From Minisyncoccota bacterium (GTDB lineage Bacteria > Patescibacteriota > Minisyncoccia > UBA6257 > 2-01-FULL-56-20), in contig DATJLR010000002.1 of NCBI GenBank assembly GCA_035509435.1, positions 209,677-273,676 of the forward strand: a DNA stretch of 64,000 nucleotides. Direction: 5' to 3'. A program made the position numbers and the translations under genes. Shown one piece after another: positions 8,374 through 31,671 of the stretch (within the stretch, counting starts at the first letter, position 1; every line of letters starts with the position of its first letter). A model generated the notes under the pieces. It made no database searches, was not told the DNA's origin, and saw only the letters and a program-made list of their open reading frames with translations.

Positions 8374-9648
8374 ATGAGTCCTCTCGAGAGACATAGTTCC
8401 ATGCGAACTGAGGCCGCTTTTACTCTCATCGAGCTTCTCGTCGTGATCGCGATCATCGCCATTCTCGCGGTGGTCGTCGTGCTGACACTCAACCCGGCCG
8501 AGCTCCTGCGCCAGAGCAGAGACTCCAATCGATTGTCTGACCTCAGCACCATAAGTGACGCAGTGAACCTCTATAACACGGATCAAGGGGGAAACTCTTC
8601 CTACACCTTGGGGGTCGCCTCCGATACTTATCTTTCGATCCTCGATCCCACGGCTACATCCACGACATCAGGAAATCAATGTTCGGGAATTGGCGTCGCG
8701 AGTGCTCCCGGGACCTACAGTTATCATTGCTCAGCGAGCAGCACATATCGTAATATCAACGCAACCGGCTGGATCCCGGTCAATTTTTCGACGCTTTCCG
8801 CGGGATCTCCCATATCAAGTCTTCCTATCGATCCAATCAATCAGACAAGCTCCGACCTCTATTACACCTATCAGACGAACGGAAGCCTATACAAGATCAC
8901 CGCTTTCATGGAATCGAGTAAATATGCGAAAGCTGGCATTATGGATGGAGGCACCGATCCTACCGTTGCAGAATCAGGTTCGGGGGTTGCGGCCATTCCC
9001 GACGTGGGAAGAGGCCTTATAGGTGACTGGCCGCTCAATGAAGGGGCTGGGGGTGCTGCGATTGATTGGGGCGGCGGAATGAACAACGGGACGTGGGGCG
9101 GTACACAGGCCGGAAGTTCGACGTATTATGGCTCTGGCAATAATGTGTTCCAATGGTCCGGATATTTCAATGGAACCAACGATTATGTGAGCGGTGCAGG
9201 CCTTGTTAGTTTTGGAAGTAGCGCCAATGGCACTATCCTGGCATGGATCAAGCCGTCTTCGTTGCCGGCTACCCAGACGATCCTGAGGCAAGGATTGCTT
9301 GGACAGTGTTATAGTTATGCCGCGTCCCTTCGTGGATCGACGCTCTATTCGGGCGATACTAACGGCGACTTTCTGCTTGGAGGTACGATCGCCACCGGAA
9401 CATGGCAACAGATTGCGGTCGTATTCACTCCCAGCGGGTCGCAAGGGTTTGTGAACGGAGCTGCCGTAGGCAGTAATGCGGACGGCCCTACCAATTGTAG
9501 TTCCGCCCAGAATTATTTTGCCATCGGCGTACAGGGGTATAATGCATCGTCGGCGCTGTTCTTTTCCGGATCGATGAGCGACGTACGTGTGTACGCGCGC
9601 GCCCTTTCATCGGGCGAGATCCAGCAGATCTATAATGCAGAGAAATAG
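8374..9648 (+). CDS. type IV pilin-like protein with a C-terminal LamG/ConA-like lectin domain
   Basis: Prepilin-type N-terminal methylation motif FTLIELLVVIAIIAILAVVVVLTLNP. C-terminal LamG signature (…SMSDVRVYARALSSGEIQQIYN). Paralog of the ORF at 57712-58998. Confidence 0.8.
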   Translation: MSPLERHSSMRTEAAFTLIELLVVIAIIAILAVVVVLTLNPAELLRQSRDSNRLSDLSTISDAVNLYNTDQGGNSSYTLGVASDTYLSILDPTATSTTSGNQCSGIGVASAPGTYSYHCSASSTYRNINATGWIPVNFSTLSAGSPISSLPIDPINQTSSDLYYTYQTNGSLYKITAFMESSKYAKAGIMDGGTDPTVAESGSGVAAIPDVGRGLIGDWPLNEGAGGAAIDWGGGMNNGTWGGTQAGSSTYYGSGNNVFQWSGYFNGTNDYVSGAGLVSFGSSANGTILAWIKPSSLPATQTILRQGLLGQCYSYAASLRGSTLYSGDTNGDFLLGGTIATGTWQQIAVVFTPSGSQGFVNGAAVGSNADGPTNCSSAQNYFAIGVQGYNASSALFFSGSMSDVRVYARALSSGEIQQIYNAEK

Positions 9649-10277: not shown

Positions 10278-10670
10278 CTAGGATTTTTCTTGAATCATCT
10301 TTTCCAGCTGTGAAATTAAGTCCTCTGCTGTTTTATAAGTAATGAACTTGTTGGTAATAAAAACCAATGAATGGGAAATCACGCTTTTTTCTTGGTAAAC
10401 ACAAATTATTGGACGACTATAAATATCTGCCCATCCCAATTCTATGCCTTGGCCGGTGGACGGATAGGAAACTTCGGCGATTACGAGGTCGCAATGTTCG
10501 ATTCGCTCTTTTGTGATCTGTTCTGGTTTATCTTTCTCCTGCGGGAGAAAAACTTCATTCATCTTATAGAGCTCAGAACTTTGGATAGATTTATAGAGAT
10601 CATCTTTCCATGGAAGTGCGCTTGCGTGTGTTACGACAATTTTCATATAGCCATTATAGCCTATGTTCAA
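10278..10670 (-). CDS. nucleoside 2-deoxyribosyltransferase-like protein (low-GC insert)
   Basis: 130-aa ORF. The motif VIAEVSYPSTGQGIELGWA resembles the N-deoxyribosyltransferase / SLOG-type active-site loop. Local GC is about 35%, against about 65% for its neighbours. Confidence 0.45.
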   Translation of the reverse strand: MNIGYNGYMKIVVTHASALPWKDDLYKSIQSSELYKMNEVFLPQEKDKPEQITKERIEHCDLVIAEVSYPSTGQGIELGWADIYSRPIICVYQEKSVISHSLVFITNKFITYKTAEDLISQLEKMIQEKS

Positions 10671-20898: not shown

Positions 20899-20971
20899 GC
20901 CCCCATAGCTCAGTCGGTAGAGCAGCTCCCTTTTAAGGAGAGGGTCCCAGGTTCGAATCCTGGTGGGGGCA
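20899..20971 (+). tRNA. tRNA-Lys (anticodon UUU)
   Basis: Cloverleaf folded by hand: acceptor GCCCCCA/TGGGGGC, D-arm GCTC/GAGC, anticodon loop CTTTTAA, T-arm CCAGG-TTCGAAT-CCTGG, discriminator A. CCA is not encoded. Confidence 0.85.
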
Positions 20972-21004
20972 CGCCGCGCGGAAAGGTATCCATTCATATT
21001 TTCA

Positions 21005-21103
21005 CCTCGCTGCCGGCGGCAATGAGAGTGTCCCAGGTTCGGGAATCGGCAGCGAGGCAGTAATGAGAATAAATTCTCATTACTGCCGAGCGAACCGATT
21101 CAG
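21005..21103. repeat. compound hairpin/palindrome structure inside the 147-bp tRNA-Lys-adjacent insert
   Basis: An 11-bp stem CCTCGCTGCCG/CGGCAGCGAGG (21005-21057) encloses a copy of the tRNA T-arm half GTCCCAGGTTCG. A 32-nt perfect palindrome GGCAGTAATGAGAAT-AA-ATTCTCATTACTGCC (21056-21087) is flanked by GAATCGG/CCGATTC. Confidence 0.6.
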
Positions 21104-21118
21104 CAAATTCTTATTTGC

Positions 21119-21134
21119 AATCCTGGTGGGGGCA
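21119..21134 (+). repeat. 16-bp direct repeat of the tRNA-Lys 3' end (att-like)
   Basis: AATCCTGGTGGGGGCA is identical to 20956-20971. Confidence 0.7.
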
Positions 21135-21136
21135 CA

Positions 21137-21172
21137 AAAAAGAGGGGATGGATTCCACCGCCCTCTTTTGCC
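21137..21172. terminator. bidirectional intrinsic terminator
   Basis: AAAAAAGAGGGG-ATGGATTCCACCG-CCCTCTTTTG serves the tRNA region on plus and the HicB-like gene on minus. Confidence 0.6.
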
Positions 21173-21188
21173 GATCTTGCCAGAAATG

Positions 21189-25269: not shown

Positions 25270-27579
25270 ATGTCAGAATCACACTTTCTCAAGCGGCTCG
25301 AACTGAACGGATTCAAATCATTCGCGGGGAAGACCGTGCTGGAGTTTCCGGCGGGGATCGTGGCGGTCGTGGGGCCGAACGGCTCCGGGAAGTCGAATAT
25401 CGTGGACGCACTGCGGTGGCTTTTGGGTGAGCGTGACGCGAAGAATCTGCGCGGCGCGCGCGTGGAAGACCTGATCTTCGCGGGGACGCAGAAGCGCGCC
25501 CGCGTCGGCATGGCGCAGGCCAGCTTATTTTTTGAGAACAAGAACAAGTTCTTTCCGGTGGATTTCGAGGAGGTGGTCGTGTCGCGCCAGATCGACCGTT
25601 CCGGCAATAGTAAATATTATCTTAACAAGTCGGAGATATTGCTGCGGGACCTGATCGACTTTTTCGCAAAGGCGCGGCTCGGCTCGCGCGGGCTCATCAT
25701 CATCGGACAGGGCGACAGCGACCTTTTCATCCGTTCCACGCCGCTCGAGCGCCGCGAAATGATAGAAGAGATCCTCGGCTTGCGTGAATATCAGATCAAG
25801 AAAGCCGATGCGGAGCGAAGGTTAAAAAATTCTAAAATAAATCTTGACAAAGTAACGGCGCTCATCGAAGAGATCGAGCCGCATTTGCGCTCGCTCAAGC
25901 GCCAGACCGGACGCTGGGAGCGCCGCGGGGCGTTGGAAGAAGAATTGCGCTCGCTCGAGAATGCGTTCTTTGGCTCGCAGCTGCACGACCTGCGGGTGAA
26001 GGGCTCGCAGGTGGAGGAGCGCGTTGCGGCGCACGCAAAGCAATATGAGGTTTTGGAAAAAGAGAAGAGCGCCGCGGAAACGCGCCAGACGGCCATCGAG
26101 GAGAGCCAGCCGGAGGAGCGCAAGCGCCTGGCGAAGATAAAAGAGGAAGTGACCGCGCTCATGGACGCCCGGAGCAAGCTGCAAAAAAGCGTGGGGCGCA
26201 TCGAGGCGGAGATCGAGATGGCAAAGCGATCCGGCGCCGCGGCATCCGCGCGGGGCGGCGGCGATGACCGCTCGTCAGAGCGCTTCATCGATGTTCTGGA
26301 AAAGATCAAAGCCGAATTGGAATCGGTGTTGAACGAAGAGCCGCTCGCGGTGCTCTCTACTATCGAGACGGTGTTGGAAGAGATCACGTTTGCGCTCGAA
26401 GAAAAAGACGAGCCGCGCACTGCCGGCAATAAAACCGCGGCCAAGGAAAGCGAGGGCGCAGTGCCGGAGCCGTTGCGTCGCGAGTTCGAGCAGGCGGCGA
26501 AGGAGCTCGCCGAGATGGAAAAGAGCATCGCCGCGCTCCGCGCGCGCGAGAAAGAGCTGGAATCCAGCCAGGAAGATTTTTACGCTACATTCAAGGGAGC
26601 TGTCGCCGACGTTCAGCAGGCGCAGGGAAAGCTCGACGCGTGGGAAAAGATCAATCGCGAGCTCCAGCTCGAAAAAGAGCGCATCGACCTGCGCCGCGAG
26701 GACGTTTTGCACCAGATCGACCAGGCCGGCCGCAAAGCGGAGGAATTCCGCACGGATGGCAATGAAGGCATGTCGCTCGAGGATGCGGTCAAGGCAACCG
26801 CCGCCGCGGGTTTTTCCGGCAGCTTGTCCGACATGGAGCACCGCATCTTCCGCCTGCGCGGCGACCTTGCGAGCATCGGTGAAGTGGACCACGCGCTCAT
26901 GAAGGAGGCCGAGGACACCGCCAAGCGCCACGAGTTCCTCCTCAAAGAATCGGAGGACCTCAATAAGGCCGTCGCGGACCTGACCGCGCTCATGCACGAG
27001 CTGAACGAGAAGATCAAGAGCGAATTCGACAAGTCGCTTTCAAAGATCAACGACGAGTTCGCAAAGTTCTTCGCGCTCATGTTCGACGGGGGATCGGCAA
27101 AGCTGAAAGTGCTGAAGCCCAAAGCCGAGCGCACGGCCGAAGACGATGAGGATGATGGCGCCGGCGCGCGCGAAAGCGCTGACGTCAAAGACACGGGCGA
27201 GCAGACGGAGGACGAGATCTATCAGGAAAAGAACGGCGGCGTGGAGATCGAGATTAAGCTGCCGCGCAAGAAGACGACGTCGCTCGACATGCTTTCCGGC
27301 GGCGAGCGGTCGCTCGTGGGCATCGCCGCGCTCTTTGCGATGGTGTCGGTGAGCCCGCCGCCGTTCCTCGTGCTCGACGAGATCGACGCGCCGCTCGATG
27401 AGCGCAACGCGCGCCGCTTCGGCACGATGCTCAAGGACTTCTCCAAGCGAACGCAGTTCATCGTCGTCACGCACAACCGCGCCACGATGGAGGCCGCCAA
27501 CATCCTTTATGGCGTCACGTTGGCCGAAGACGGCAGCTCAAAGGTGGTGTCGCTCAAGCTGGAGCCGGAGGGGGCTTAA
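25270..27579 (+). CDS. smc: SMC-family chromosome segregation ATPase (short 769-aa variant, no obvious hinge)
   Basis: N-terminal Walker A GPNGSGKSN, long coiled coils, C-terminal LSGGERSLVGIA and Walker B FLVLDEIDAPLDE. The rnc-smc synteny is conserved. Confidence 0.7.
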   Translation: MSESHFLKRLELNGFKSFAGKTVLEFPAGIVAVVGPNGSGKSNIVDALRWLLGERDAKNLRGARVEDLIFAGTQKRARVGMAQASLFFENKNKFFPVDFEEVVVSRQIDRSGNSKYYLNKSEILLRDLIDFFAKARLGSRGLIIIGQGDSDLFIRSTPLERREMIEEILGLREYQIKKADAERRLKNSKINLDKVTALIEEIEPHLRSLKRQTGRWERRGALEEELRSLENAFFGSQLHDLRVKGSQVEERVAAHAKQYEVLEKEKSAAETRQTAIEESQPEERKRLAKIKEEVTALMDARSKLQKSVGRIEAEIEMAKRSGAAASARGGGDDRSSERFIDVLEKIKAELESVLNEEPLAVLSTIETVLEEITFALEEKDEPRTAGNKTAAKESEGAVPEPLRREFEQAAKELAEMEKSIAALRAREKELESSQEDFYATFKGAVADVQQAQGKLDAWEKINRELQLEKERIDLRREDVLHQIDQAGRKAEEFRTDGNEGMSLEDAVKATAAAGFSGSLSDMEHRIFRLRGDLASIGEVDHALMKEAEDTAKRHEFLLKESEDLNKAVADLTALMHELNEKIKSEFDKSLSKINDEFAKFFALMFDGGSAKLKVLKPKAERTAEDDEDDGAGARESADVKDTGEQTEDEIYQEKNGGVEIEIKLPRKKTTSLDMLSGGERSLVGIAALFAMVSVSPPPFLVLDEIDAPLDERNARRFGTMLKDFSKRTQFIVVTHNRATMEAANILYGVTLAEDGSSKVVSLKLEPEGA

Positions 27580-27643
27580 GGTTGTAGTAACGGAAATGGA
27601 CCAAGAAGAAGTGGATTGATTTAGGCGAAATGTAAGGTATTTT

Positions 27644-27680
27644 TTGGATGTCTAACTCCCGCCTCAGCAATGCGAATGCC
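27644..27680. repeat. degenerate partial copy of the tRNA-Ala 3' portion
   Basis: The 27-nt stretch AACTCCCGCCTCAGCAATGCGAATGCC (27654-27680) is identical to 28353-28379 inside the tRNA-Ala gene. The TTGGA upstream may correspond to the tRNA 3' end with a 14-nt deletion. Confidence 0.6.
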
Positions 27681-27684
27681 ATTG

Positions 27685-28320
27685 TTATTTTGCTAAAGTC
27701 AAAGCTTTCAGTCTATCGAGATAAATCGTAGCTCTTTCTTGTTGCCGTTCATCCGCGATCTTTGAGATTGCAGCTTCAAGTTTTTCTTCGTCAAATCCAC
27801 GAGGATTTTTCGTCTGCCAGTCAGCGTCTTCGAGGTGGACATCATCAAGGTAGATGAGTGCGTCGCCATTTTCGCTGTATGTGAAGTTGCACGTCGTCGT
27901 GTCTATCTCAACGCCCAGCTCTTCCAATGATCCGATCAGCTGTTTATATTTCGGATCTTCATAGATCTTATCCGATGCGTCACTTGCCTTTAGATAGGCT
28001 TCTTTCGGAATCTCGCCTAACTTTGCTTCGAGTTCTCCGGCGTGTTGGATTGATTGGTGTAGGGGATCAAGAATTACTCTTTCGCGGCGGGTGGCCTGAG
28101 GATTTGATGTCGCAAGATCTACGTCTGGTATATTTTGAGGGAAAAGAATGTGGAGTATCTTCTTCAGATAGAACCTCGCTTTTATCTTCCTTTCGCGATC
28201 TTCGGTATCTTCTTTTCCTTCTTTGCGTATAGCAATGACTCGATTTGGATTATTAGAATCCTCATGGACGTCATTATCAGACCCTCCTCCAATTCGTTCT
28301 CCTGCGCCAAACTTTTTCAT
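27685..28320 (-). CDS. hypothetical protein encoded in a low-GC islet
   Basis: 211-aa acidic ORF in a roughly 40% GC segment bounded by the tRNA-Ala gene and its partial repeat. Confidence 0.5.
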   Translation of the reverse strand: MKKFGAGERIGGGSDNDVHEDSNNPNRVIAIRKEGKEDTEDRERKIKARFYLKKILHILFPQNIPDVDLATSNPQATRRERVILDPLHQSIQHAGELEAKLGEIPKEAYLKASDASDKIYEDPKYKQLIGSLEELGVEIDTTTCNFTYSENGDALIYLDDVHLEDADWQTKNPRGFDEEKLEAAISKIADERQQERATIYLDRLKALTLAK

Positions 28321-28334
28321 TAGAGTTGATTTTG

Positions 28335-28405
28335 TGGACCCGGGGAGAATCGAACTCCCGCCTCAGCAATGCGAATGCCGCGTTATACCACTTAACTACG
28401 GGCCC
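28335..28405 (-). tRNA. tRNA-Ala (anticodon CGC)
   Basis: Reverse complement folds as acceptor GGGCCCG/CGGGTCC with the G3:U70 Ala identity pair, D-arm GTTA/TAAC, anticodon loop TTCGCAT, T-arm GGGAG-TTCGATT-CTCCC. Confidence 0.85.
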
Positions 28406-28475
28406 GTCCCATCGCACATAACTATAAAGAAAATGGTAATAATTTCAAGCCCGATACGTTATACTATATATCACT

Positions 28476-29084
28476 ATGATCACCATCAAGGGCGTCATCT
28501 TCGACATCGGCGGCGTGCTTCTCGACTCGGAGAAGTCGTTTGACGGCATATTCGAGGAATTCGCCCGCGCGCTCGGCGTGGATCCGGAGAAGATGGTGGC
28601 GCTCCACAAGCGTTATCTGGACCGGATGCTTTCCGGCAAAATGTCCGCAAAGCAATTTTTCAGCGCCATCAAGAAGGAGTTTCACTTAAAGCGTCGCGAT
28701 ATGGAAAAGGTCTGGCTCGCGATCGCGCTCAAGCATATCAAACTGAACAAGAAGCTGCTCGCGGTGACGGACAAGATGCGCGCGCACTACCGGCTCGCGC
28801 TGCTTTCGAACGTGAGCGAGCCGCGCTCGCTCGTGGACCGCGAGTTCGATCTCTACAGCCACTTCGATCAGGTGTTCCTTTCGTACAAATTGCACATGCA
28901 GAAGCCGTCCAAGCGCACGTTCCGGCACGCGCTCAAAAAAATGCGCCTCAAGACGAACGAAGCGCTCTTTATAGACGACAAGGAGATCAACCTGAACGCC
29001 GCCCGCGCGCTTGGCATCCAGTCCATCCAGTTCAACAACAATGCACAGCTCCTCACGGAACTCGCGCGCCTCGGTTTGGTATAA
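28476..29084 (+). CDS. HAD-superfamily hydrolase
   Basis: Motif I FDIGGVLLD and a C-terminal ALFIDDKEINLNAARALG. Confidence 0.75.
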   Translation: MITIKGVIFDIGGVLLDSEKSFDGIFEEFARALGVDPEKMVALHKRYLDRMLSGKMSAKQFFSAIKKEFHLKRRDMEKVWLAIALKHIKLNKKLLAVTDKMRAHYRLALLSNVSEPRSLVDREFDLYSHFDQVFLSYKLHMQKPSKRTFRHALKKMRLKTNEALFIDDKEINLNAARALGIQSIQFNNNAQLLTELARLGLV

Positions 29085-29147
29085 TTATAGTAAAGGGAAA
29101 AGGTCGAAATAGGGGATAGAAACACGCTATTTTATTTCATCATTACT

Positions 29148-29834
29148 ATGGTTGTACAAAGTTGGACGGATGTGGTGGTAGGGTCCCTCCAGAACCTCTG
29201 GTGGGGAGTTGTCAATTATCTGCCGAACCTGATCGGCGCGCTCGTCGTGCTGGTGATCGGGCTCATCGTCGCGGCAGGACTCGCGGCCCTCGTTGAGAAG
29301 ATCCTTGAAGGGATCCGACTCGACAAGTTCCTTGAACGGATCGGGCTGAAGCCGATATTCGAGCGCGCTGGCATGCGGATCCGCGCGGCATACTTCTTCG
29401 GCAAGCTGGTCTACTGGTTCATCATCGTCGCGTTCCTCGTGGCGATCACGGACAGCCTGCAGCTCTACGCGCTCTCGGCGTTCCTCTCGTCGGTGCTGAA
29501 CTATCTGCCGAACGTGATCGCGGCGGTGCTCATCATGCTCGCGGCGCTCATCCTCGCGCACTTCCTGCGCAAGCTCGTGACGGCGTCGGTGATGGGCGCG
29601 AAGCTCCATTCGGGGCCGTTCCTCGGAACGGTGACGTACTGGGCGATCGCGGTCTTCGGGTTCCTGACGGCGCTCACGCAGCTCAATATCGCGGCGCAGA
29701 TCATCCAGACGATCATCACCGGATTCATCGCGATGCTCGCCCTCGCCGGCGGCCTGGCCTTCGGCCTCGGCGGCAAGGACTACGCGAATCATCTCTTGAA
29801 CCGGCTGAAGGACCGGACGGAGAACCGGTACTAG
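29148..29834 (+). CDS. membrane protein with duplicated conserved TM-helix repeats (MscS-N-terminal-like)
   Basis: Two repeats, NYLPNLIGALVVLVIGLIVA and NYLPNVIAAVLIMLAALILA. Confidence 0.55.
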   Translation: MVVQSWTDVVVGSLQNLWWGVVNYLPNLIGALVVLVIGLIVAAGLAALVEKILEGIRLDKFLERIGLKPIFERAGMRIRAAYFFGKLVYWFIIVAFLVAITDSLQLYALSAFLSSVLNYLPNVIAAVLIMLAALILAHFLRKLVTASVMGAKLHSGPFLGTVTYWAIAVFGFLTALTQLNIAAQIIQTIITGFIAMLALAGGLAFGLGGKDYANHLLNRLKDRTENRY

Positions 29835-29837
29835 AAA

Positions 29838-29906
29838 TAAAAGACCCCTCCTTTTGCGATTGGAATGTCCGCACATAGATCGCAAAAGGAGGGGTCTTTT
29901 ATTTCT
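29838..29906. terminator. bidirectional intrinsic terminator (22-bp stem)
   Basis: TAAAAGACCCCTCCTTTTGCGAT…ATCGCAAAAGGAGGGGTCTTTTATTT. Confidence 0.7.
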
Positions 29907-29933
29907 TGACCTTTTTTCCTTGTTTGATATAAT
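29906..29933 (+). promoter_or_regulatory. sigma70-like promoter for rpsP (TTGACC-N16-TATAAT)
   Basis: The -10 ends 7 nt before the rpsP ATG, implying a leaderless mRNA. Confidence 0.5.
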
Positions 29934-29940
29934 GGAACCC

Positions 29941-30330
29941 ATGTTGGCAATCAAGCTACAACGCATCGGAAAGAAGCACCAGCCGAGCTATCGGGTGGTC
30001 GTTGCCGAGAAGCGCTCAAAGATGCTCGCCCCGCCGGTGGAGGACCTGGGCTCGTACGACCCGCGCACCAAGGCGACGACCGTCAAGAACGAGCGTGTTT
30101 TGCATTGGATCAAGATGGGCGCCCAGCCGACCGTCACCGCGCACAATCTTTTGGTAAAGGAAGGCGCGATCACCGGCGCAAAGCTAGCGGTCAAGATGCC
30201 GAAGGCGGTTTCCAAGGCGGAACAGCCGGCGGTAGAGGAAGCAAAAGCTGAGGCGTCCGCGGAAGCGGCGTCGCCTGCGGAGGAAGCTCCGGCAGCGGAG
30301 GCATCGACAGATGCGGAAGCGGGCGCGTAG
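29941..30330 (+). CDS. rpsP: 30S ribosomal protein S16 with an Ala/Glu-rich C-terminal extension
   Basis: MLAIKLQRIGKKHQPSYRVVVAEKRSK…. Confidence 0.9.
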   Translation: MLAIKLQRIGKKHQPSYRVVVAEKRSKMLAPPVEDLGSYDPRTKATTVKNERVLHWIKMGAQPTVTAHNLLVKEGAITGAKLAVKMPKAVSKAEQPAVEEAKAEASAEAASPAEEAPAAEASTDAEAGA

Positions 30331-30345
30331 CATTTTTCCGTCAGC

Positions 30346-30374
30346 TTGACAGATAATTTAATATACGGTATACT
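30346..30374 (+). promoter_or_regulatory. sigma70-like promoter (TTGACA-N17-TATACT)
   Basis: Consensus hexamers upstream of the KH-domain gene. Confidence 0.5.
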
Positions 30375-30429
30375 TTCCCCATAATTCGGAATTGAAACGT
30401 AACGAAAGGTCGCGAACGAACAGAACACA

Positions 30430-30741
30430 ATGTCGAATTCATCTTCAGCGGACCAGGAGTTTCTCGAGTATCTGGTGAAGTCGCTCGTCGACCATCCGGA
30501 TGATGTGCGCGTCGATCGCAAGGTCGACGAGATGGGCGTCCTGCTCACGCTCCACGTGAACGCGCAGGACATGGGCCAGGTCGTCGGCCGCCAGGGTGCG
30601 ACCGCGAAGGCCATCCGCTCGCTTTTGCGGATCGTCGGCGTCAAGAACAACGCCCGCGTGAACCTCAAGATCGAAGAGCCGGAAGGCGGCACCCGCGCCC
30701 CTCGCGCGGAACAGCCCCAGACGGAAGGAGCGAGCGAGTAA
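30430..30741 (+). CDS. KH-domain RNA-binding protein (UPF0109/YlqC-like)
   Basis: GxxG KH core (VVGRQGATAKAIRSLLRIVG) in the usual position after rpsP. Confidence 0.75.
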   Translation: MSNSSSADQEFLEYLVKSLVDHPDDVRVDRKVDEMGVLLTLHVNAQDMGQVVGRQGATAKAIRSLLRIVGVKNNARVNLKIEEPEGGTRAPRAEQPQTEGASE

Positions 30742-30760
30742 TCATTCTTCTGTTTTTGCA

Positions 30761-30789
30761 AAAATGCCCGCACTCCGGGCATTTTTGTT
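30761..30789. terminator. intrinsic terminator
   Basis: AAAATGCCCG-CACTC-CGGGCATTTTTG. Confidence 0.55.
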
Positions 30790-31107
30790 TAACATAGACT
30801 TAATGCAGTATTCGGTATGCTGTTCTCATGATCATTGACCGGGTTCTTGCATTATTTGATTGGTGCAAGGCGCAGCTATTTTTATGGAATAAAAACTCCC
30901 AGGCATCTTTTAAGGAGGGCGAAATTTGGTGGTGCAGCGTCGGATTAAAAATATGTCCCCGCCATGGGGCGGGGATCATCGGGACTTCCCAAAAATACTT
31001 CATTATTATACTTCCGGGATAATTTCAGTCAAATTTCTTTTAATGATTTTTTAATCTTCTATGAGGGGAGTTGCAAACTTCAATGTTTTTGCTACAATAT
31101 ATCCGAT

Positions 31108-31671
31108 ATGGCACTCGCATATACCGATTTGACCAAAGGCGTTCTCTTCATCATGGACGGCGCGCCGTACGAGGTCGTGGAGACCCATTTTTTGCGCATG
31201 CAGCAGCGCAAGGCCGTCGTGCAGACCAAGATCCGCAACCTCATCACCGGCAAACTTTTGGACCGCAACTTCCAGGCGAGCGACAACTTTGAAGAGGCGG
31301 AAGTGGAGCGCAAGTACGCGATGTTCATCTACGAAAGCAAGGGCCAGTACTGGTTCCACGAGGAGGGCAATCCCAAGAACCGGTTCGCGCTCGATGCCGA
31401 TGTCGTCGGCGGCCAGGGCCGTTTCCTCAAGCCGAACACGAAGGTGACGACGATGGTCTTTGAGGGCAAGGTGATCCAGGTGGAGATCCCGGTCAAGATG
31501 GAGTTCAAAGTGACCGAGGCGCCGCCGTCCATCAAGGGCAACACCGCGCAGGGCGGCACCAAGACGGTGACGATCGAAGGCGGCGCGAAGATCAACGCCC
31601 CGCTCTTCATCAACGAAGGCGACATGATCCGCGTGAACACGCAGACGGGGGATTACGTGGAGCGAGTGTGA
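31108..31671 (+). CDS. efp: elongation factor P
   Basis: EF-P KOW and OB domains (…VVQTKIRNLITGK…KPNTKVTTMVFEGKVIQVEIP…). Start at ATG 31108 after a TACAAT -10. Confidence 0.9.
   Translation: MALAYTDLTKGVLFIMDGAPYEVVETHFLRMQQRKAVVQTKIRNLITGKLLDRNFQASDNFEEAEVERKYAMFIYESKGQYWFHEEGNPKNRFALDADVVGGQGRFLKPNTKVTTMVFEGKVIQVEIPVKMEFKVTEAPPSIKGNTAQGGTKTVTIEGGAKINAPLFINEGDMIRVNTQTGDYVERV

Follow-up and report, generated by a model that had tools for sequence, protein, structure and literature searches.

A foreign gene for a predicted kinase-like protein, inserted at tRNA-Ala(CGC) in a Minisyncoccota genome

The 64,000-nucleotide stretch of Minisyncoccota DNA analysed here (the window) contains an islet in which a single gene of foreign composition lies between an intact tRNA-Ala(CGC) and an exact 27-nt copy of part of it. 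We interpret the islet, with a probability of about 0.6, as the result of a recent insertion at tRNA-Ala, specific for the anticodon stem, which carried a kinase-like gene, now expressed from the tRNA promoter, and re-supplied the lineage with a gene it had lost. Such gain of a gene at a tRNA is nothing out of the ordinary, but the form it takes here is unusually tiny and has no integrase.

A foreign gene packed between a tRNA and its echo

ARAGORN detected two tRNAs in the window. One is an intact tRNA-Ala(CGC) on the minus strand at 28334/5–28405 (Rfam RF00005, 66 bits), which carries the G3:U70 pair and is 100% identical to the tRNAs of two related loci, L025 and L032. The 27-mer AACTCCCGCCTCAGCAATGCGAATGCC, which reads GGCATTCGCATTGCTGAGGCGGGAGTT on the tRNA strand, occurs exactly twice in the window, in direct orientation on the minus strand and 699 nt apart: inside the tRNA at 28353–28379 (tRNA nt 28–54), where it runs from the anticodon arm through the variable loop and the 5′ T-stem strand to the second base of the T-loop, and again at 27654–27680, a copy that we call the echo. 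The copies are identical at 27/27 positions and form a 30-nt repeat if one mismatch is allowed (29/30 over 27651–27680). No such match arose in 100 dinucleotide-preserving shuffles, even with three mismatches permitted (0 expected by chance), confirming the exact copy on which the original prediction was built. The echo is unrelated to the tRNA in its flanks on both sides, and identity stops abruptly in the T-loop, with 5/19 matches between the 19 nt past the 27-mer and the tRNA 3′ end; the TTGGA that had been proposed as a remnant of that end is a 5-mer without statistical support. The second tRNA of the window, a tRNA-Lys (20899–20972), is followed by a partial copy at about 21025–21137, so that both tRNAs are indeed scarred, as had been claimed.

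The sole ORF between the repeat copies is the cargo gene, an intact frame for 211 aa on the minus strand at 27685–28320, located and bracketed just as predicted. Its start is separated from the tRNA 3′ end by 13 nt and its stop from the repeat by 4 nt, and the interval encodes no integrase or other recombinase, only this kinase-like ORF. Its product is 100% identical to P0001, the hypothetical protein VMA75_02030 of a Candidatus Paceibacterota MAG. In composition the gene is foreign, with a GC content of 44.2% and a GC3 of 0.41 in a window of 57.5% GC whose native genes have about 56–63% GC and GC3 values of 0.75–0.88. The contrast first estimated, roughly 40% GC in a roughly 65% GC genome, overstated both ends of a gap that is nonetheless strongly atypical.

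On the left the islet is flanked by the native smc gene (25270–27579, plus strand), the stop codon of which is followed in relatives, after 11–29 nt, by the 3′ end of tRNA-Ala. Replacement by homologous recombination through the 3′ end of smc was rejected, the gene having native GC up to its stop codon. Between that stop and the echo lies an AT-rich stretch of 74 nt (27580–27653). It contains the hexamer TGGACC at 27598–27603, 17 nt after the smc stop, which is the position of the tRNA 3′ end in relatives. This hexamer may be the decayed original 3′ end, although the match is only suggestive, unguided local alignment against shuffles not being significant (P about 0.35). With blastn-short, the 74-nt stretch and the junctions had no homologs in any of the fetched loci. 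On the right stands a gene for a HAD-family hydrolase (28476–29084, plus strand) of native composition (GC3 0.82), which tblastn did not detect at the islet position in L025, L032 or L057.

From the tRNA 3′ end to the start codon of the cargo gene there are 13 nt (28321–28333, minus strand), and these contain no promoter-like site. The only σ70-like match between 27400 and 28600, TTGAAA-16-TATAGT (10/12 positions; 28421–28448, minus strand), lies upstream of the tRNA. Given this arrangement, transcription that starts at the tRNA promoter probably reads through into the cargo gene, whose message would then be released by tRNA processing. The same promoter motif is conserved in L057, the closest relative, upstream of an outer tRNA fragment that represents the original tRNA 5′ end. 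The 5′ flank of the window tRNA (28388–28450) resembles the flank of that original 5′ end, to which, judged by sequence, it is orthologous.

The same site in related genomes

We identified syntenic relatives by tblastn with the window's proteins. SMC identity to the window falls from 86% in L057 through 80% in L025 and 73% in L032 to 63% in L060. In the latter three the smc stop is followed by 13–29 nt and then by the tRNA-Ala 3′ end, without an islet. In L057 smc is followed by 11 nt, a 46-nt partial tRNA copy (nt 28–72), 31 nt and an intact tRNA; here too the cargo gene is absent from the tRNA-Ala site. The suspicion that the islet is variably present across related tRNA-Ala loci was therefore well founded. 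We conclude that the islet was inserted at the tRNA specifically in this lineage, at a site that has been repeatedly disturbed in this clade.

The cargo protein belongs to a widespread family with a predicted kinase-like fold

Scans with Pfam, PHROGs, PADLOC and NCBIfam returned nothing significant for the 211-aa protein, and no relatives were found in viral contigs. A word-indexed protein search yielded only four close homologs (51–68% identical), a repeat of it with a large alignment (A2) seven proteins, and a metagenome scan with alignment A1 four loci. Searched with a profile, 1.84 billion cluster representatives yielded 433 clusters at E ≤ 1e-3, 289 of them at E ≤ 1e-10, with members nearly all of 200–240 aa. 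The protein thus belongs to a real, unnamed and widespread CPR family of at least 433 clusters at 50% identity.

The original prediction had found no recognisable domain in the protein, a view now superseded by structure prediction and conserved motifs. An AlphaFold model built from a 112-sequence alignment (pLDDT 93.5, pTM 0.90) predicts a minimal, bilobal protein-kinase-like (PKL) fold, and the Foldseek search that had been suggested as a check, run with a model from a shallower alignment, ranked kinase-fold proteins first (NleH, OspG, Rio2 and HopBF1). Across the 112 family members the glycine-rich loop I-G-x-G is conserved (G11 in 76%, G13 in 100%), as are the catalytic loop D-x4-N (D140 in 95%, the rest Glu; N145 in 100%) and the metal-binding position 159 (Asp in 76%, the rest Glu); the window protein has G11, G13, D140, N145 and D159. 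On the strength of these three motifs it is probably an active ATP-dependent phosphotransferase. Catalysis is not assured, because the canonical β3 lysine at position 33 is poorly conserved (Lys 39%, Arg 26%, His 13%) and the family alignment has no conserved glutamate in the long helix that could serve as the αC Glu; that helix instead conserves Y51, K54 and H57 at 93–95% (K54 at 95%).

Profile comparison with the PDB gave only marginal matches confined to the G-loop (E 0.02–0.2; NleH1 0.022, HopBF1 0.063). Membership of the NleH/OspG/HopBF1 effector families (described in PMC9950578) was rejected, the similarity being non-significant and the genomic contexts of the family being rnc–smc, nrdR–nrdJ and the like. 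Pfam PF10707 (YrbL-PhoP_reg) matched 17 of the 112 relatives at E ≤ 0.01 (best 5e-6); the window protein stays below the gathering threshold, with no match even at E ≤ 10. On sequence, then, the protein is a distant relative of PF10707 and not a member.

The family's usual slot is empty in this lineage

A family gene lies between rnc (RNase III) and smc in L032 (33% identical to the window protein), L068 (31%) and L069 (P0138, 27%), and directly upstream of smc in L004/L005 (51%). The rnc–smc gap is 17 nt in the window and about 57 nt in L057, an empty slot in both; in L060 an unrelated ORF of 150 aa occupies that slot. By tblastn there is no paralog of the 211-aa gene in the 64-kb window. The vacant slot in the window and in L057 therefore points to a lineage without a native copy of the family gene, as judged within the 64 kb.

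The native copy in L068 matches its neighbours in composition (GC3 0.14 versus 0.15–0.18), and other copies fall below theirs (L032, 0.63 versus 0.76; L004, 0.38 versus 0.58). The closest homologs of the cargo (51–67% identical) have 39–51% GC, and their unrelated contexts speak for mobility of the gene: four adjoin an IS1595 transposase and a 2′-5′ RNA-ligase-like gene (L001–L003 and L065), the closest of all adjoins a small GIY-YIG gene (L006), and one lies behind what its sequence suggests is the remnant of a HicAB-like toxin–antitoxin system (L004). Since the usual rnc–smc slot is empty in the window and in its closest relative, the islet is most likely a xenologous re-supply, from a lower-GC CPR donor, of a gene that the lineage had lost. 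That the gene came to lie 75 nt downstream of smc is most simply read as an accident of where the tRNA-Ala hot spot is.

CPR tRNA-Ala(CGC) loci are littered with tRNA debris

When one genome of each species was searched for exact matches, the 27-mer turned up, identical in sequence, in at least 56 CPR loci, each from a different species. About one in five of the CPR tRNA-Ala(CGC) loci examined carries tRNA fragments, nested tRNA copies or inserts of less than 700 nt. The 27-mer recurs downstream of the tRNA in L015 (twice, in tandem), L055, L057, L058, L061 and L062. In L015, L055, L057 and L061 the 5′ edge of the echo falls at nt 27/28 and is preceded by ..GTC; the echoes of L058 and L062 are more diverged, with the junction shifted by a base or two. 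In L015, L058 and L061 the echo is broken in the middle of the T-loop by 20–60 nt of unrelated, often hairpin-forming sequence, after which the tRNA 3′ end follows. The break in identity at the T-loop is thus shared by loci other than the window. The T-stem halves of the L058 echo co-vary (GGCAG/CTGCC), which indicates that they were once contiguous. All ten intervals between tRNA-Ala and an echo or 3′-end copy were shorter than 700 nt, and none was multi-kb. One of these intervals, the insert of about 390 nt at tRNA-Ala in L020, encodes a short GIY-YIG ORF that seems to be frameshifted and shares 36% identity with the GIY-YIG gene adjoining the cargo homolog in L006. When 56 tRNA-Ala loci were scanned by regular expression for tyrosine-recombinase box motifs, a single Xer-like ORF emerged, in L058, with no clear link to the tRNA. 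Of the recurrent integrase activity that had been proposed for this lineage, the recurrence is borne out, both by L057 and by the scarred tRNA-Lys, but the integrase is not: there is none in the islet and one Xer-like ORF in the 56 loci.

In five loci (L015, L055, L057, L061 and L029) a complete tRNA-Ala(CGC) is nested in the remains of another tRNA-Ala. The layout in the first four runs from nt 1–18 of the outer tRNA through a hairpin and a left arm to the intact tRNA, and then through a right arm complementary to the left to outer nt 28–72; the hairpin sequence co-varies between loci. L029 differs: its outer tRNA is another, intact-looking tRNA-Ala(CGC), into which an arm–tRNA–arm insert has been placed between anticodon positions 35 and 36. 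The arms are 12–23 bp long, locus-specific in sequence yet complementary, the longest in shuffled controls being 8–10 bp. RNAalifold on the five loci gave a stem enclosing the cloverleaf, in which 14 pairs are kept through two-sided changes. The outer fragments in L057 bear the original flanks, the smc side on one and, on the other, a promoter side matching the flank of the window tRNA, which makes the inner tRNA the newcomer. Neither an outer 5′ fragment nor arms are present in the window; the event there may therefore have differed in type from that of the nested loci.

Several origins for this debris were considered and rejected. Retro-copying was set aside because a CCA tail is not consistently present, and a dispersed REP-like repeat because a 20-nt palindrome common to the L055 and L061 echoes had no further copies in the fetched loci. 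Group I introns were dismissed since the inserts are too small, have no Rfam match and differ from the known tRNA introns of Patescibacteria, the paper on which deals with group I introns (PMC13011429). A limited literature search found no description of nested tRNA genes of this kind. It is conceivable, though we think it improbable, that the islet is a cargo-bearing member of an undescribed class of integrase-less elements of 30–700 nt that target CPR tRNA-Ala(CGC) and regenerate or replace the tRNA. If such a class existed, its extreme form would be the five loci in which a tRNA-Ala with 12–23-bp arms sits, like a Russian doll, inside a broken resident; the element would destroy its own target and supply the replacement tRNA, and the near-identical tRNA-Ala(CGC) of distant CPR classes would itself be a horizontally spreading gene.

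Discussion

The reading that we favour runs as follows. A foreign unit of 699 bp inserted, recently and in this lineage only, into the resident tRNA-Ala(CGC), on its 3′ side, regenerating an intact tRNA and leaving a direct copy of nt 28–54 at the far end. The process would have been site-specific for the anticodon stem-loop, like that of tyrosine-integrase islands, since the echo has its 5′ edge at the anticodon stem as do most CPR partial copies of the 27-mer; as the islet encodes no recombinase, the enzyme would have acted in trans or been lost afterwards. The cargo is one intact gene for a predicted minimal protein-kinase-like enzyme, most likely expressed as a tRNA–mRNA co-transcript and re-supplied from a lower-GC donor after its loss. 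Several points run counter to this reading: a recombinase is missing from the islet and, by motif scan, from the surroundings of tRNA-Ala in 55 of the 56 related loci; identity ends in the T-loop, where the textbook model predicts a fragment reaching the tRNA 3′ end; cargo-less echoes occur in the closest relative and several other CPR genomes, from which it follows that the echo could be older than the gene; a further paralog of the family may lie in the genome beyond the 64 kb covered; and the poor conservation of the β3 lysine, with no evident αC glutamate, leaves catalysis less than certain.

The original prediction envisaged a decayed tRNA-targeted integration that left one cargo gene. 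Its core, foreign DNA inserted at a tRNA, variably present and at a recurrently used site, agrees with what we find; decay is the doubtful part, because a displaced 3′ fragment that decayed uniformly would not show 27/27 identical positions followed by 19 unrelated nt, and the ORF is packed to within 13 nt of the tRNA and 4 nt of the repeat. In its full form, in which an integrase-bearing prophage or integrative element at tRNA-Ala was trimmed by deletions to a single gene, this account is possible but unlikely. CPR genomes are streamlined, which makes such deletions plausible, the repeat has its edge at the anticodon stem, and a tRNA with a direct tRNA-derived repeat is the signature of Islander-type islands (PMC4383910). 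Deletions would, however, have had to stop just short of an intact ORF on both sides; random decay predicts a spread of sizes where the ten tRNA-Ala-to-echo intervals are all short; an integrase-bearing element at tRNA-Ala was found in none of the 56 loci searched; and the 27-mer had no match in viral contigs.

Alternatively, the echo may predate the gene, as the relic of an earlier tRNA replacement or nesting into which the kinase-like gene was later inserted illegitimately. Cargo-less echoes with an identical 5′ edge are common (L057, L055, L061 and L015) and include the closest relative, identity breaks off abruptly in the T-loop much as it does in the interrupted echoes of L015, L058 and L061, and the hexamer at 27598–27603 is a possible older, decayed 3′ end. 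We nevertheless consider this sequence of events distinctly unlikely: the features of the nested type (outer 5′ fragment of 18 nt, hairpin, inverted-repeat arms) are missing from the window, as is the ..TTGTC motif found before other echoes, and 27/27 identity to the tRNA points to a recent origin, unless the echo is kept identical by gene conversion.

A native gene, with the 27-mer serving as a functional RNA element (for example a 3′-UTR structure or tRNA mimic) and not a recombination scar, is very improbable. The family is native next to smc in related genomes, and its GC3 tends to lie somewhat below that of its neighbours, as in L032 and L004, but the gap here (0.41 versus 0.79) is far larger than in those two, and the gene is missing at this position in four relatives. 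Moreover, the echo region shows no excess RNA structure (folding z = +0.54), and an Rfam scan returned tRNAs only, with no family for the echo. An assembly chimera, joining two metagenomic populations at a 27-mer that is identical in at least 56 CPR species, with related organisms present in sister samples (L003 comes from SRR8879131), is hardly credible, because an independent Logan assembly (run SRR8879132) is 100% identical over window positions 27369–31320 and so reproduces both junctions; the contig is also 439 kb long, and a repeat of 27–30 nt is shorter than the final k-mers that assemblers normally use.

With insertion at the tRNA as the preferred reading, the islet illustrates, in a clean and datable case, the acquisition of single genes by ultra-small CPR genomes at tRNA sites where no integration machinery is visible; it also suggests that a foreign copy took the place of a lost gene, at a distance of only 2.3 kb from the former slot. 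A predicted fold and a likely chemistry can now be attached to a widespread, unnamed CPR family, and because the family is found again and again between rnc and smc, a tie of a minimal kinase to the housekeeping of chromosome or RNA can be put to the test. The family and the CPR tRNA-Ala(CGC) loci, with their fragments, nested copies and micro-inserts, are the parts most worth attention; should a dedicated mobile element lie behind the debris, it would represent a new mode of tRNA-gene turnover.

Among known systems, the cargo invites comparison with other minimal kinases, namely the T3SS effectors NleH1/2, OspG and HopBF1, the RIO/Bud32 kinases and PF10707 (YrbL). It differs from them in that sequence similarity is not significant (best E 0.02–0.2) and in that its family clearly conserves K54, H57 and Y51 but not the β3 Lys or αC Glu; unlike the effector kinases, moreover, it has a housekeeping context in the CPR (rnc–X–smc) and not a secretion-system locus. 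Homing-endonuclease cassettes are brought to mind by the GIY-YIG ORF in the analogous tRNA-Ala insert of L020, whereas the window islet contains no endonuclease gene. CIMEs are non-autonomous, att-flanked elements mobilised in trans, and island hot spots accrete tandem partial tRNA repeats. The islet resembles these in that att-like repeats flank a small integrase-less segment, and the tRNA-Ala loci resemble them in reusing the same tRNA and in the tandem echoes of L015. They differ in that no cognate integrase-bearing element was found among the loci searched, and we know of no nested 5′ and 3′ tRNA fragments with inverted-repeat arms described for CIME-type elements.

In layout the islet resembles tDNA islands. 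In the textbook model, integration splits a tDNA, the island restores it and a displaced fragment marks the far end; the anticodon loop (the 'A' subsite) is a catalogued crossover subsite, and the Islander criteria are an intact tRNA, a displaced fragment that normally runs from the crossover site to the 3′ end, a tyrosine integrase inside, and foreign composition together with absence from relatives (all PMC4383910). The islet likewise has an intact tRNA at one end, a direct tRNA-derived repeat at the other, with its edge at the anticodon stem, and foreign cargo that is variably present (absent from L025, L032, L060 and L057). Unlike such islands it is only 0.7 kb long, without an integrase, its repeat is an internal block of 27–30 nt that does not reach the tRNA 3′ end, and its ORF fills the interval almost exactly. 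Whereas the textbook model thus leaves unaccounted for the missing integrase, the near-exact fit of the ORF and the collapse of identity in the T-loop, its split-and-restore integration does account for the intact tRNA, the direct repeat, the foreign cargo and the 'A'-subsite edge.

Nested tRNA-Ala genes in CPR loci

Fragments of tRNA-Ala of some kind were found in about 11 of the 56 species-level CPR loci recovered by exact match to the tRNA-Ala 27-mer. Several of these had a nested arrangement, in which an intact tRNA-Ala(CGC) lies within the fragments of an older tRNA-Ala (L055:3262-3512; L061:7255-7515; L057:6891-7135, minus strand, from the closest relative of the window; L015:235-560; and L029 at about 1800-2000 of the reverse complement, minus strand). 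The inner gene is bordered by complementary arms of 12-23 bp, the sequence of which varies from locus to locus, and the older gene is broken at nucleotide 18/27 or, in L029, at the anticodon (35/36). L055 may hold a third layer of nesting.

A 20-nt palindrome, CCTGCCTGCCGGCAGGCAGG, is identical at L055:3466-3485 and L061:7476-7495, where it splits the partial tRNA-Ala copy at differing positions. One of the two genomes belongs to Paceibacterota and the other to Saccharibacteria, and no further copies of the palindrome were found among the fetched loci.

A partial tRNA copy elsewhere in the window

The second tRNA of the window (20899-20972) was called 'tRNA-Stop, anticodon tta' by ARAGORN. The standard register gives the anticodon loop CTTTTAA with anticodon TTT, on which basis the gene is tRNA-Lys(UUU); the 'suppressor' label looks like a register artefact arising from a G27-A43 mismatch. 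A partial copy starts 52 nt downstream of this tRNA. Its first part (about 21025-21041), which lies between the two arms of an 11-bp inverted repeat (21006-21016 and 21047-21057), extends from the 3' strand of the anticodon stem up to and including the T-loop TTCG. About 78 nt of hairpin-rich inserted sequence separate it from the second part (21120-21136), which supplies what is left of the T-arm together with the 3' strand of the acceptor. Folding of 20899-21180 gave -92 kcal/mol, much more stable than shuffled sequences (z = -6.2). The L057 ortholog of this tRNA is without any such partial copy.

Gene content around tRNA-Ala and smc

On the 5' side of the window tRNA-Ala, the HAD-family hydrolase (28476-29084) has native composition. 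It was not detected by tblastn at the same position in L057, which carries another small ORF there, or in the syntenic relatives L025 and L032; both sides of tRNA-Ala are therefore variable. The order rnc, kinase-like gene, smc is kept in several Paceibacterota-like genomes (L032:4693-5313, L068:3644-4183, L069:810-1523 and L004:285-959). What lies between rnc and smc varies, the slot being empty in the window and L057 and occupied by an unrelated 150-aa ORF in the syntenic relative L060.

Two other ORFs of the window are compositionally atypical: 10278-10670 (minus strand; 130 aa, GC 0.38), with a weak nucleoside 2-deoxyribosyltransferase match, and 8374-9648 (plus strand; GC3 0.57), encoding a 424-aa pilin-like protein with an N-terminal methylation motif and a Laminin_G_3 domain.

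In locus L020 (245-730), the interval separating tRNA-Ala from another copy of its T-loop-to-3'-end segment holds a small, apparently frameshifted GIY-YIG ORF of 77 aa. The closest homolog (67%) of the window's kinase-like cargo gene, in L006, is directly preceded by an 89-aa GIY-YIG gene (L006:56-325), with which the L020 ORF shares 36% identity.
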